A DNA stretch of 64,000 nt from Octopus vulgaris. Lineage: Eukaryota. The stretch covers positions 62,744,001 through 62,808,000 of the forward strand of contig OX597820.1 in assembly GCA_951406725.2 (NCBI GenBank), given 5' to 3'. A program made the position numbers and the translations under genes. Shown one piece after another: positions 962-54,250 of the stretch; the stretch's first letter is position 1; each line of letters opens with the position of its first letter. The notes beneath the pieces were generated by a model, which worked only from the letters and a program-made list of their open reading frames with translations, was not told the origin of the DNA and did not search any database.

Positions 962-1815
962 AAAATTTAGTTTAAAATAGAGAAGAGAAGCAAGATTGGC
1001 TGTGTGCTTTACCAACGACATGGTTCCAGGATCAGTCTCACACACATGTGTGTGTGTGCGTGTATGTGTGTGTGTATGTTTCTGTGTCTGTATTTGTCCC
1101 CTCCACCACCATCGCTTGACAACAGATGCTGGTTTGTTTACGTTCACGTAACTTAGCGGTTCAGCAAAATACACCGATAGAATAAGTACCAGGCTTACAA
1201 CGATTAATTTCTGTGATCGAGTTGTTCGACTAAAGGCGGTGCTCCAGCATGGCCGTAGTCAGATGACTGAAACAAACAAATGAATAAAAGAATAAGATGT
1301 TAAAATATGTAAGAGGATGTTAATTTATGCAGGCGATCGTTTCGTACAGAGATATAAAATCATGCAAATTCATGGTTGTATTCAAGTAAATTAAATTAAT
1401 TAAATTAATTATATATTAATGTGCTCTTCAGTACAAGAAGTATAAACAATATTTTTACAAAGAACTTGAGAAAGAAAACAGCAGAATATAATCTAGGAGA
1501 TTCACATAACCATTATAGCGTTTAGTCCATTTTAGTACATAACTGGACTCACATCTTTTCTTTTTACTCATAAGAATAAATATGAATGACCTTGATTCTA
1601 TTCTGCTGTTTCCTTTCTCAAGTTCTTTGTAAGAATTTTGTTTATACTTCTTGCACTGAAATACTGATATATACTTAATTTGATTGATTTAAATTACATC
1701 AATTCAACCATGAATTTGCATGATTTTTATGTCTCTGTACGAAACGATCGGCTGCAGGAATTCAAATTCTCTTATATATTTTAACATCTTCTCTTCTCCA
1801 TTTTTAACTAACTTG
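962..1815. mobile_element. Fold-back element with a degenerate hammerhead motif in each arm; left arm interrupted by a SINE
   Basis: About 1293-1505 is the diverged reverse complement of about 1580-1790. The left arm resumes at about 962-990 (tagtttaaaatagagaagagaag), matching 1788-1812. Left arm, minus strand: tgta CTGAAGA GCAC...GTAC GAAAC gatc GCC tgca. Right arm, plus strand: tgca CTGAAA TAC...GTAC GAAAC gatc GGC tgca. Confidence 0.75.
991..1297 (+). mobile_element. tRNA-derived SINE (CORE-type family), internally deleted
   Basis: Head ttaccaacgacatggttccaggatcagtc, (TG)n, body ccaccaccatcgcttgacaac, and 3' end aaggcggtgctccagcatggccgtagtcagatgactgaaac, as in the copy at 47585-47960. Confidence 0.8.
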
Positions 1816-1984
1816 TGAATCCATAAATTCACATCATATTAATATATATATATATATATATATATATATATATATATATATATATAACGGGAAGCTTTAT
1901 GAAAATAAACAAAAGACGAAGGCAGGTGGAATACAAACAAACAATTGTATTAGCATGGCGCTCAGGAATATAAATAAAACAAGT

Positions 1985-2020
1985 CTTTTACGTTTCGAGC
2001 CTACGCTCTTCGACAGAAAG
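1985..2020 (-). ncRNA. Degenerate minimal hammerhead-like motif in a dispersed repeat (second copy 19505-19540, plus)
   Basis: cttt CTGT(C/T)GA A GAG cgtagg CTC GAAAC GTA aaag. A6 of the CUGANGA core is mutated in both copies. Confidence 0.4.
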
Positions 2021-3454
2021 ATACACAGGAAAGAAACACGGAGAGAAACAATATATATATATATATATATATATATATATATATATATATATATATATAT
2101 ATATATACAAACACAAATATATACAAATAAGTCCTGAGGTCAATTTCTTCGAATAAAAAGGTTGTGCTCCAGCACAGCCACAATCAAATGACTGCAACGA
2201 ATAAAAGCATAAAAGGATATATATATATATATATATATATATATATATATATATATATATATCAAAAGAGATAGAGATAGAGATAGAGATAGATAGATAG
2301 ATAGATAGATAGATAGATAGATAGATAGATAGATAGATAGATAAAAAATGAGAGAAACAGAAAATGAATTCACAAGATTCTGTATTAATCCCAACGAGCA
2401 CTTCAATATGTATGCGCACGCGCGTATGTGTGTATCAAGTATTTCAATACTTCGGTAGAAATACCTGCTAGGAAGAATATATATATTTATAGATATATGC
2501 GCTTAAATGTATCTATGTATCTACACATGCCTGTGTGTATTGAGTGCGAAATCTACTTGATTTGATTTACCTATATATGCATCTACGCTGTTATGTGAGG
2601 TCGTTCATATATCATTGTATGTACACGTAAGGAAATGTGATTGTATATGATTCGAATTATATATACAAGGTAAAGTGTAATTTATCTTCGGAAACACTTC
2701 CATATTTTATGTCTCCAACAGCGGTTATATTCGCTATATTCTTCCTGCATCTCTATGGAAATACATGTATACCTAAATATTTATCACAGAGACAGACACA
2801 CACACACACACACACACACAGACACACTCACACACACACACACATATATATATGTATGCATATGAATGTGTGTATGTGTATGTGGGCATGTACAGATATA
2901 TATATATATATATATATATATATATATATATATATATATATATATATATATACGTTTATCAATTTGTGTTGCAAGATTGGTAAATTGGTAATGTGAACTC
3001 GAGTTTTGAAATAGATATTGTTGTATTTCGAAATGGCCATTTTCTATTTGCTAAATAAAGACACGTACTCTATCGTTTACTACCGTTCTTTTTCTAACTC
3101 ATGTCCATTGTCCAGAAATATTTCGTCGCACATCTGTGACCTCCTCACCAACACTTTCCGTCTTCGTGTGTGCTCTTGCTCTGCTTATTCCATTCTGTTC
3201 TTCTTTGAAGTATATCCATATATGCGCATGCGACTGCGTGTGTGTTTGTTTTCAAGTGTGTGTGTGTGTTTGTGTGATGTGTTTGCGCGTGTGTGTGCGT
3301 GATTGTTCTTAGTTGCACTATGATCCTCCCTTTATACTCATCTCCTACCCTGTTGCCGCTCCTGCTGCCCTTGAACCCGACTTTCTGTGAAAGAAGCCCG
3401 TCGTTTATATGTACACAACTAAAACATAATATGTGCTAAGGGTATATTCTTTCC

Positions 3455-3534
3455 CTCTCTGATGAGATTAAGCTCAGAAATATGATTTTGATATTTTTAA
3501 ATTCCACTGTGCTTAACTGAAACAGCTGTAGAGA
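3455..3534 (+). ncRNA. Type I hammerhead ribozyme motif (one nucleotide missing at the cleavage site)
   Basis: ctct CTGATGA GA TTAAGC t CAG...CTG t GCTTAA CT GAAAC agct GTA gag. Long stem II; palindromic stem III (ACAGCTGT). Confidence 0.7.
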
Positions 3535-3567
3535 TAACGATCGATTTTTGTTACTCAATTATCTTTT

Positions 3568-3775
3568 TATTTGTTTCAGTTATTTGACTGCAGTCATGTC
3601 GGAGCACCGCCTTTAGTCGAACAAATAGACCCCAGACCTTATTTCTTGTAATCCTTGTACTGTATCGGGATCTCTTGGCGAACCGCACTAATTTACGGGG
3701 ATGTAAACACACCATCATCGGTTGCCAAGCGAATGTGGGGGAACAAAGTGACACACACACACAACCCACACACAC
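3568..3775 (-). mobile_element. SINE 3' half (CORE-type family)
   Basis: ttgtttcagttatttgactgcagtcatgtcggagcaccgcctttagtcgaac...ggttgccaagcga matches other copies in the window. Confidence 0.7.
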
Positions 3776-52166: not shown

Positions 52167-52242
52167 TATATATATATATATATATATATATATATATATA
52201 TATATATATATATATATATATATATATATATATGTATATATA

Positions 52243-52627
52243 TCTCTCTCTATATAAACGGCAGTTTGTCTGTGCGTTTTCTGTGTGTCTGTTTTCTCGT
52301 ACCCTCACTCTGACCGCGGCTTTCAACCGATTCTGATGAAACTTGACACACACATAGCCCAATGTCATAATTCAAAACTAACGCAGCGAAAATTTTGAAA
52401 AGTTCCCCCAGTTCTGAAAAAATCGATAAATTCGACATGGGGTCGAGAATCAGAAACCCAAACCACAGACCGTCTAGGGGACGCAACTCCACCTTTTTTA
52501 ACTCTCAAAAAAAAATTTACCATCATTTTTTTCCCATTTTTTTTGCTATTTTTTGGCTATAACTCTCTAAAATTGCTTTATAGTTATTTCCCTTACAAAC
52601 CTGAGCAACGCCGGGCGATACTGCTAG
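52243..52627 (+). mobile_element. Non-autonomous Helitron
   Basis: 5' TC(TCTCTCTATAT), 3' CTAG, subterminal GC-rich hairpin (cctgagcaacgccggg), inserted between A and T with no TSD. Confidence 0.8.
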
Positions 52628-53030
52628 TATTATATATATATATATATATATATATATATAGGAAAGAATTGGGGAACACATTTCAAAGGTCAGGTCATTT
52701 ATCAAATTAAGTCATTTCGCATCATAGGCATATTCATAAACAGTATCAATTCAAGTACAAATATACAAATCATGAAAGCTGATAAGGGGTCCTGACCTTG
52801 CAAATCTTTTCTCTCCATTCTTGCCTATATTCTTATTGTTCCTTAAGACCGCCAATGAGTTGCGCTGTATGAAAGGATATCATATTGATATACTTCTCTT
52901 AATTATTCCATATATATATATATATATATATATATATATATATATATAGATATACAGATACGGTCGGTCATGTTCATCTGTCTTCCCGCTTAGTCTGTTA
53001 AGACTTATCATAACTCAAAGCTAGCCTACT

Positions 53031-53340
53031 ATGTTCGTCTGATAGACGAAAAACCCTTTCTGTTATATATTTATGCTGTAAACGTACAATTGTTTTCTTT
53101 TTGTTGAACAACCAAAGTCGATTATCTATTGTATGTGCATAATACTTTTTTCTATTGCACTTGTATTATTATTTCATCATGTTATGTTCGTCTGATAGTC
53201 GAAAGACCTATTCTGTTATTTATTTATTTGTAAATGTACAATTATTTTCCTTTTGCTGCATAGCCGAATGCCGTATGTCTGTTGTATGGGAATAATTCTA
53301 GCTTTATTGCTCTCGTTTTCGTTCTTGTATACATTAGTTT
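53031..53340. repeat. Diverged tandem dimer, period about 153 bp
   Basis: atgttcgtctgatag.cgaaa.acc...tctgttat at 53031 and 53184. Confidence 0.7.
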
Positions 53341-53702
53341 TTTTTTTTTTTCCCAGAAACTTAATCTTTTTAGCTTAATGCTCTGGTGCTTGCCGGATTC
53401 GAGAAGTGGCAGTGATCAACAAGCACGAAACTGCTAGGACCTTCCGGACACTGACTGACGCGGAAATCGGCCGCGAAAGGTACATGTATGTTGATTTTGT
53501 CGGGTTTCCCGTTTGTTATGTTATCGTCTATTTTTCCGTATGCTGTTTTTGTTGGATTTCTGCTTGTGTTTTTTCTCTCTTACACTTGATTCATATATAT
53601 ATAAACTTTCACAGATATTCAATCTATGTTCACTGTGTAACTTGCATCGACTTGTGTCGCCTTCTTCTTGCTTTCCTGCTTTTCATATTTAATTTTCCTG
53701 TA

Positions 53703-54250
53703 TATATCTTCAAGGCAGAAATATATAGCTCGCTTAAGTGGTAAAGAGTGTTACTCAGCACTAGTATTACTAGAAATAAACAACTGAGTAGCCATAGAAG
53801 GCACTATCTTAATGACATGTCATTAAGATAATGCCTTCTATGCCTATTAAAATGGTTTGACTTTTATTTCTAGCAATACTAGTGCTGAGGATTGCCCTTT
53901 GTCACTTAAGTGACGTATATATTTCTGCCTTTAGGATGTAAAATTGCAAATTAGACACCCATATTATTTATTATTTTCACGTTTACCGTTTATGAAATCA
54001 GAGTATGATTTCAACGAATATCTTACGAGCTGAGTTCAAACCTAGGCACAGCGAAAGCCACTGATGAGCATTAAGATGCGTAAGCATAAAAATGCAAAAT
54101 CATCTACGATCTCCCTATTCCTGCTGCTGTAAGGAGACAACCTGCCATGTTAGTATACAAGATAGTGCATTCTCTGGCTATTGATTGTTTTGCATCTTAT
54201 TTCTAGCAATGCTGGTGCGGATTAGTACCGCCTTTGTCACTTTATAAGCG
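53703..54250. mobile_element. Spacerless palindrome joined to a terminally redundant unit of about 334 bp with a hammerhead-like core
   Basis: Palindrome centred at 53817/53818 (atcttaatgacatgtcattaagat). About 53825-53908 recurs, diverged, at about 54159-54243. CTGATGA GCAT taag ATGC GTAA at 54061-54083. Confidence 0.65.

Follow-up and report, generated by a model that had tools for sequence, protein, structure and literature searches.

Fold-back loci in the window and their two kinds of ends

We analyzed a 64-kb stretch of the 2.80-Gb Octopus vulgaris genome (contig OX597820.1, positions 62,744,001 to 62,808,000; referred to here as the window), which has a GC content of 35% and is rich in microsatellites, and in which a first-pass annotation had described six inverted repeats carrying hammerhead ribozyme motifs. 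Self-BLAST of the window recovered all six, with inverted repeats at 1294-1790, 16535-16808, 20703-21587, 40867-41467, 50932-51241, and 53690-53953 (loci 1 to 6) and with arms 75 to 93% identical. These loci, together with repeats at 16953-17159 and 19692-19959, make up the eight local fold-backs found outside simple repeats. Relatives of loci 1 to 6 are referred to as families F1 to F6, in that order, and two extra families as F7 and F8. A first look yielded 720, 673, 1,711, 1,941, 641, and 1,117 candidates for loci 1 to 6, respectively, of which the best 40 were scored for each; these figures are not copy numbers. Seven of the eight window fold-backs come from hammerhead families (F1 to F6 and F8), and the eighth resembles a mariner-type miniature inverted-repeat transposable element (MITE). 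Most likely, the six loci arose as head-to-head insertions of Penelope-like elements (PLEs), truncated at the 5' end, in (TA)n-type microsatellites, with both nicked strands of the target likely serving as primers at two fixed positions within the RNA.

Every family showed two fixed 3' ends adjoining (TA)n or a similar repeat: site A, at the end of the pseudo-long terminal repeat (pLTR), and site B, located further on, at a distance of 152 nucleotides (nt) in F4, about 130 to 150 nt in F3, about 125 nt in F1, and about 50 nt in F6. An arm that reaches site B is tailed, and an arm that stops at site A is untailed. All 11 resolved two-armed insertions in a first F4 set were A+B. This pairing was then set as a prediction for F4 loci picked by their endonuclease (EN) sequence, after exclusion of loci already counted and of two that carry small internal inversions; 9 of 10 inverted pairs were A+B, the tenth having one arm cut short, and further resolved loci picked in the same way gave A+B in 8 of 8 cases. 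Among F3 pairs, 13 of 14 were A+B, and the remaining one has a broken left end. An automated count over all eight families, limited to pairs with both arms reaching site A and overlapping the earlier sets, assigned one tailed and one untailed arm to 82 of 90 head-to-head insertions; none had two tails, three had no tail on either arm, and five were ambiguous. Window locus 2 is among the three; its tail lies past a small duplication, and its left side carries a 36-nt duplicate of the hammerhead 3' half at 16499-16534. Loci 2 to 5 clearly obey the one-of-each rule, and the tailed arm has decayed or is short in loci 1 and 6 (Table 1). This counted rule is what the present analysis adds.

The boundaries given in the first-pass annotation left out the one-sided tails of locus 4 (40716-40866), locus 5 (to ~51320), locus 2 (to ~16426), and locus 1 (to ~815), and the segment 991-1296 that it counted within locus 1 is an unrelated insert in the left arm, a copy of a repeat that we take to be a short interspersed nuclear element (SINE). 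Terminal redundancy, reported for three loci, holds for loci 2, 3, and 6, and the proposed (TA)n-type microsatellite targets are borne out by the arm ends. The six loci had also been described as lacking a common primary sequence; consistently, cross-family comparison around the hammerheads and ends returned short AT-rich words only, and no common sequence or fold between sites A and B was evident in the comparison.

Table 1. Arms of the hammerhead-family insertions and inserted repeats, in window coordinates
Feature	Position	Strand	Description
Locus 1 (F1), left-arm tail	815-990	-	Tailed B-type end, decayed; matches F1 tail downstream of site A
SINE-like dispersed repeat inside locus 1 left arm	991-1296	+	Several other copies in window; foreign to element
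Locus 1, left arm	1294-1516	-	Decayed hammerhead: core 1431-1425, GAAA 1343-1340, U16.1 changed
Locus 1, right arm	1501-1841	+	Untailed A end into (AT)n at 1842; core 1656-1662 with deletion, GAAA 1741-1744
Locus 2 (F2), left side	16426-16697	-	Core CCGACGA 16637-16631; tail ends at (ATA)n
Locus 2, right arm	16693-16800	+	Untailed, into (ATAC)n; broken core at 16707
F8 fold-back	16865-17143		Left arm tailed, right arm untailed into (TA)n; arms too short for F8 hammerhead
F7 copy	20251-20697	+	Hammerhead core 20447; short inverted piece 20251-20315; (TA)n end is insertion site of locus 3
Locus 3 (F3, 480-bp tandem retrozyme), left arm	20703-21202	-	A end in (TA)n; intact hammerhead 20863 to 20820
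Locus 3, right arm	21201-21736	+	B end in (TA)n; one complete unit and 57 nt more; hammerhead intact, 21427-21470
F7 single-armed copy	38610-39190	+	Intact core 38836-38882; tail
Locus 4 (F4, Hydra-clade PLE), left arm	40716-41196	-	3' UTR/pLTR; intact hammerhead 40994 to 40919
Locus 4, right arm	41204-41467	+	Untailed A end in (TA)n; intact hammerhead 41341-41415, 56-nt helix II
Locus 5 (F5), left arm	50929-51045	-	Untailed A end; hammerhead 3' half only
Locus 5, right arm with tail	51046-51320	+	Core 51059-51065 (C3 changed), 70-nt helix II, GAAA 51136
Locus 6 (F6, ~348-bp tandem unit), left arm	53703-53815	-	Runs slightly past site A (decayed tail)
Locus 6, right arm	53825-54257	+	1.3 units, A end in (TA)n; decayed hammerhead, core 54061-54067

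The fold-back is the product of single insertion events rather than a family architecture, since 14 of the 30 top F4 loci are single-armed and arm lengths vary freely; the centers of two-armed copies differ every time. Arms range from 32 nt to more than 3 kb, and this variable length, together with the asymmetric ends, sets them apart from DNA-transposon terminal inverted repeats with a fixed target site duplication (TSD). Two F4 insertions (L236 and L241) combine a full unit, a partial tandem, and an inverted arm, and their ends are still A+B.

Sister arms resemble each other more than expected. In the EN-picked F4 pairs (8 of the 10 new pairs were scored, two having been removed by a filter), they share 96 of 131 variants versus 21.7 expected. 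The first F4 set gave 9 shared variants versus 1.1 expected, with none shared in 5 of 9 overlapping pairs, and the 14 F3 loci gave 32 versus 6.9. At window locus 3, all four variants are present in both arms, and some sister-arm variants are absent from every other sampled copy. The two arms overlap at their junction by at least 3 nt in 18 of 30 cases, compared to 7% by chance. Hammerhead cleavage as the determinant of arm 5' ends was rejected, since arm starts are scattered across the unit and the arms continue past the cleavage position without stopping; a clustering of starts in F8, ~60 nt from the cut, was due to a palindromic query. The predicted cleavage is probably not what sets the insertion ends.

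Autonomous elements and retrozymes

Relatives of locus 4 are 97 to 99% identical and run inward by variable length into an open reading frame (ORF) of 775 amino acids within a 2.86-kb unit, which combines a reverse transcriptase (RT) with a C-terminal GIY-YIG-like EN. This ORF contains YRDD, SDKTG (DKT), and RWL motifs and the arrangement CLLC..E..N..CKH (CxxC..E..N..CxH), with a single Cys between the GIY and YIG equivalents and no CCHH motif. The CxxC and CxH pairs around E and N, DKT instead of DKG, an N-terminal RWK, and the absence of CCHH are described as marks of the Hydra clade, elements of which are already listed for Octopus (PMC8557442). Compared by eye, the F4 ORF tracks Hydra-1_Obim motif by motif (supplement of PMC8557442), and the Hydra assignment, which is such a comparison by eye, agrees with the ORF layout, the unit size below 3 kb, the hammerhead at the 3' end, and the insertion traits. 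The best 150 scored matches to the F4 EN are all 97 to 100% identical, three of them within 778-amino-acid open frames, and Atlas look-alikes of the ORF carry GIY-YIG, RVT_1, and HTH_animal; a PDB sequence search of the ORF returned nothing. On these sequence grounds, locus 4 is the 3' end of a young and presumably autonomous Hydra-clade PLE. The 152-nt tail of its left arm (40716-40866), which ends in (TA)n, is the element's own 5' untranslated region (UTR). The template would therefore have continued into the next unit or have been circular.

Three of the other families lead into related coding sequences. A decayed GIY-YIG-like EN with a CxCX5C linker (CSCRDKYLC) lies upstream in two F2 copies (L172 and L173), and a Hydra-type EN with the linker CTCRDKNRC lies upstream in 7 of 25 longer F5 copies. 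For F1, we found an EN tail within insertion L170 (weak, local E value of 0.012) and RT fragments upstream in L171 (E value of 4e-27); the linker was not recovered from these decayed remnants. The 3' UTRs of F1, F2, and F5 are long (about 0.7 to 2.3 kb). Judging from their sequences, loci 1, 2, and 5 are the 3' ends of older, decayed Hydra-type elements. The expected linkage of arms to Penelope-like ORFs was thus found for F1, F2, F4, and F5, and the families, linked ORFs, and insertion structure uphold the first-pass assignment to Penelope-like or retrozyme retroelements rather than DNA-transposon MITEs. Its description of a non-autonomous population does not hold, as four of the six loci are 3' fragments of elements with their own RT/EN ORF, and only loci 3 and 6 fit it. 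No PLE ORF lies within the window itself, as had been stated, and a tblastn search with the F4 ORF gave no window match below an E value of 3.6.

Other PLE fragments were observed beside hammerhead-family insertions in L003 (on the 3' side), L012, L017, and L176, three of them GIY-YIG sequences with two cysteines (Neptune/Poseidon-like) and one an RT piece; by sequence, several predicted PLE clades coexist in this genome. EN fragments 40 to 85% identical to that of F4 in L178 (7028-7345), L157, L161, and L297 represent further Hydra families and are candidates for mobilizing F3 or F6.

F3 is a 480-bp non-coding unit that occurs in arrays of up to 7 full units, and F6 is a unit of ~348 bp with partial tandems and direct repeats of 329 to 349 bp; by structure, loci 3 and 6 are tandem non-LTR retrozymes. 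Units inside one F3 array differ by 1.6, versus 7.9 between arrays, a pattern compatible with rolling-circle copying as well as with uniform multimer transcripts; the array period, considered as a sign of a multimer circle, was discarded for want of any clear period. No autonomous partner of F3 or F6 turned up, although no dedicated genome search for one was made. The listed sequence sources for F3 and F6 include contigs only and no RNA record. Contigs of four runs match the F4 unit, but strand, ends, and circles are unreadable from them, and they were not used as evidence. Site A of F3 has two sub-positions ~20 nt apart (unit positions 387 and ~407), both at an internal ATA (L031 and L049 versus L035 and L045). 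The ends in all families land on TA-like letters, which suggests short pairing with the (TA)n primer. F7 (1,012 candidates) likewise has a type I hammerhead and A/B ends, and it is probably another retrozyme, because some of its copies are partial tandems of ~510 bp (L185/L202).

Hammerhead motifs

A strict scan for type I hammerheads with an intact core and stems I to III found 5 motifs in the window, compared to 1 in 25 block-wise dinucleotide shuffles (0.04 per shuffle). Four lie in the arms of locus 3 (20863, minus strand, and 21427, plus strand) and locus 4 (40994, minus strand, and 41341, plus strand), all facing outward as had been proposed; the fifth, at 38836 on the plus strand, is outside the listed loci. 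The hammerheads face outward because each arm is the 3' end of the element. Paired hammerheads, claimed for four loci, are intact at loci 3 and 4 and decayed at the other two: at locus 1 both arms are broken (U16.1 changed, and a deletion in the right core), and at locus 2 the left core is intact but its helix II is damaged, while the right core is broken. For loci 5 and 6, the left arms are indeed too short for a core, but the right cores, described as complete, are mutated. The core of locus 5 is located at 51059, with C3 changed to A, 70 nt ahead of the GAAA at 51136, and the conspicuous CTGAGGA at 51119 sits within the long helix II and does not form the core; locus 6 has a changed G12 and a broken stem I.

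Families F1, F2, F5, and F6 nevertheless have complete hammerheads when relatives are considered: among the aligned best ones, the core is intact in 11 of 29 F1, 19 of 25 F2, 17 of 24 F5, and 7 of 25 F6 copies. Helix II with its loop spans 82 nt in F1, 31 nt in F2, 70 nt in F5, and 29 nt in F6, and helix II of F4 spans 56 nt. The right hammerhead of locus 3 has a U-U at the base of helix II, and helix III is palindromic in all six families F1 to F6, which fits the dimer-dependent cleavage described for metazoan hammerheads (PMC4209133). In constrained folding, the hammerhead fold lies above the minimum by 0.4 kcal/mol at locus 4, 3.0 kcal/mol at locus 3, and 4.8 kcal/mol at 38836. Conservation of cores versus flanks in the aligned families is 0.93 versus 0.93, 0.97 versus 0.92, 0.97 versus 0.95, and 0.91 versus 0.86. 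Judged by eye, the F8 hammerhead is complete in longer copies; in this family (1,601 candidates), such copies show a 7-bp helix I, CUGAUGA, a 42-nt helix II, and a CCAUGG palindrome.

The two motifs compared locally with Rfam stayed below threshold: Hammerhead_1 scored 13 bits at 21421-21476 (locus 3), against a gathering score of 34, and the F4 motif in L091 gave no hammerhead match. A whole-window Rfam scan was microsatellite-driven, with nearly all miRNA and no hammerhead among the best 150 of 350 matches, and a hammerhead scan that required a helix II of at most 40 nt and disallowed U-U returned 0 motifs in the window. A compact hammerhead-like motif with one core change (CCAAAGA), a 6-bp helix II, and a 5-bp helix I was seen outside the fold-backs at 30135-30101 on the minus strand.

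Discussion

We infer the steps from nicking to second-strand synthesis as follows. An RT-endonuclease, probably as a dimer, would nick both strands of a microsatellite. One 3'-OH would prime at site A and the other at site B. The template would be uncut RNA, tandem or circular and of a single source, either one molecule copied twice or two sibling RNAs. Synthesis of the two cDNAs would end independently, after which they would pair over a few bases, each serving to complete the second strand of the other; if only a single primer were extended, a single-armed copy would result. Retrozymes (loci 3 and 6) would borrow the same enzymes in trans. PLE RTs are not known to have RNase H, and double reading would be possible if the RT left the RNA intact.

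Other origins of the fold-backs can be weighed against the same observations. Inversion could arise in these same elements by fold-back or self-priming, with one cDNA (or antisense RNA) copied back or extended after a template switch (PMC3846280). Such copying of one cDNA, also proposed in the first-pass annotation, would account for the variants common to sister arms, for near-palindromic junctions (L240 and L026), and for the short internal inversions in L026, L208, L220, L232, L237, and L241, and in 13 of 28 F4 insertions the sequence of the untailed arm is indeed contained in the tailed arm. In another 13 of the 28, however, the untailed arm is longer while the tail is on the other arm only, so that neither contains or could have copied the other, and simple fold-back copying is therefore excluded there; the remaining 2 are complex. 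Moreover, the inverted arm consists of tail sequence only in L018, L091, L092, and L233. Self-priming (PMC3846280) explains head-to-head junctions but not unique sequence in each arm, and a switch to RNA at site B would rescue the model only by converging on two RNA-templated starts. We consider this origin unlikely. Two independent single-armed insertions in opposite orientation into one (TA)n tract, or later gene conversion or mis-assembly, appear very improbable. Such tracts are hotspots with nesting, as locus 3 within the end of an F7 copy illustrates, but the arms join directly with no (TA)n between them, A+A and B+B pairs would be expected about half the time and were seen in 0 of 28 F4 insertions, and sister arms carry variants found in no other sampled copy. 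Variant sharing and end pairing largely refute this explanation.

The prevalence of hammerhead families among the window fold-backs (7 of 8) might instead indicate a new class of non-autonomous fold-back ribozyme elements in which the hairpin with paired hammerheads is the functional unit. We give this little credence: centers and arm lengths change from copy to copy, single-armed copies are numerous, four of the families continue into PLE ORFs, and hammerhead cores are about as conserved as their flanks; the paired hammerheads are also on opposite strands, so that any one transcript carries just one in the sense orientation. That the loci are DNA-transposon MITEs with chance hammerhead-like words has next to no probability. 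The fold-back at 19757-19901, which we take to be mariner-type, shows that a MITE-like element does occur here, but the frequency of strict motifs relative to shuffled sequence, the variable length, 5' truncation, asymmetric ends, and linked RT ORFs refute this reading for the six loci.

Several points weigh against paired priming by PLEs as the origin of the six loci. The loci examined were the best-scoring matches (40 or 150 of hundreds to thousands of candidates) rather than a random sample, and a TSD is unreadable within (TA)n. The 13 F4 insertions whose tailed arm contains the other could also have come from fold-back copying, and 2 others are complex. Gene conversion between the arms, or a single dominant source locus, could account for the shared variants, and at L022 two polymorphic alleles are confined to one arm. 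Junction overlaps may be inflated by the extension of BLAST edges, and 6 of the 30 junctions were scored as gaps (one of them, L206, mis-picked). A Pfam search of the F4 ORF gave no match, and the CxCX5C linker that Hydra-clade elements have ahead of the EN is not evident in it. The link of F1 to an ORF comes from two decayed copies only.

For PLEs, published traits include inverted 5' copies, a tail on only one end, targeting of (TA)n, and hammerheads in the pLTR (PMC8557442, PMC3846280); retrozymes are described in PMC7229834, and their PLE origin is treated in bioRxiv 10.64898/2026.07.22.740005; the families found here appear to be new members of these known kinds. Hydra-clade elements such as Hydra-1_Obim share with ours a single ORF in a unit of less than 3 kb with the RT followed by a C-terminal GIY-YIG, DKT, no CCHH, CxxC and CxH about E/N, a hammerhead near the 3' end, a (TA)n target, 5' truncation, partial tandems, an inverted 5' copy, and a one-sided tail (PMC8557442). 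In contrast, the families here are distinct (by eye, F4 is not Hydra-1_Obim), F4 has RWL in place of RWK and no evident CxCX5C linker, tails measure 50 to 150 nt here and 30 to 40 nt in that clade, helix II of F1, F4, and F5 measures 56 to 82 nt compared to an 8-nt loop in Hydra-1_oBim (PMC8557442), and the 3' UTRs of F1, F2, and F5 are long by comparison. F3 and F6 resemble metazoan retrozymes in consisting of low-GC, non-coding units in tandem, each with a single type I hammerhead, and in occurring alongside PLEs (PMC7229834), and F3 shares the U-U at the helix II base with axolotl HHR_Amex2; its 480-bp unit exceeds the quoted 150 to 450 bp. The F3 and F6 arrays differ in having PLE-style ends (two fixed ends, an inverted arm, and (TA)n). 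In the available portions, the word "inverted" is absent from PMC7229834 and occurs once, in an unrelated use, in bioRxiv 10.64898/2026.07.22.740005, where "tail" is absent. The one-of-each rule, its extension to retrozyme arrays, and a very long helix II were not found in the literature, our coverage of which was incomplete, older Penelope reviews included.

The closest biochemical parallel is the Anolis Poseidon element PAc, for which both strands are nicked and extended in vitro, two internal RT starts match tail ends, insertion does not need hammerhead cleavage, and a dimer is predicted (PMC11167929). An AT-rich target is common to PAc and the elements described here, and use of both strands, two internal starts defining the tail, and a dispensable hammerhead would be as well. 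PAc nevertheless belongs to a different clade than F4, and its sites lie inside the ORF start whereas those of F4 lie in the pLTR end and 5' UTR; start sites showed no difference between strands in that study, and in the available part of the paper the two starts are not tied to the two ends of inverted insertions (PMC11167929).

The proposed reaction also has a counterpart outside PLEs. In LINE-1 twin priming, primers from the two target strands yield an inverted insertion joined by microhomology, as proposed here. The inverted part in LINE-1 is upstream and non-overlapping and starts at a variable internal site, whereas the arms described here start at fixed 3' sites and usually overlap.

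Beyond these loci, we lean toward a broader view: PLEs would integrate by paired priming, with one ribonucleoprotein, two fixed RNA sites, and cDNAs serving as mutual second-strand templates, in a reaction common to autonomous Hydra elements and unrelated non-coding retrozymes within one genome, and hammerheads with a long helix II would form a large class that standard models miss. If so, paired priming alone would account for inversion of the pLTR, for tails on one side only, and for hairpins that resemble MITEs, and the spread of retrozymes would be tied directly to PLE enzymes. How the tandem and inverted structures of PLEs form is listed as an open question by Craig et al. 2021 (PMC8557442). 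The rule, counted in eight families and upheld on loci picked after it had been predicted, could be put sharply to the test in the in vitro system that already exists, for which the young F4 family provides intact ORFs. That 480-bp retrozyme arrays bear the same ends is direct evidence from the genome that such arrays can be delivered ready-made by a PLE-type reaction, in addition to arising by local amplification. In annotation terms, many of the short MITE-like hairpins next to (TA)n in this genome are ends of retroelements, and several hammerhead families would escape searches that allow only a short helix II.

Other features of the window

Two elements of the long interspersed nuclear element (LINE) type with AP-endonuclease and RT frames were observed at 34086-36700 (minus strand) and 59108-63309 (plus strand); the former has a long open frame and the latter is frameshifted. 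The 145-bp element at 19757-19901, presumably a mariner-type MITE, has terminal inverted repeats of ~28 bp between TA dinucleotides and a weak Rfam match to mir-548. Similar CTGATGAAGGG contexts at 767 and 41973 are possibly remnants of another repeat.

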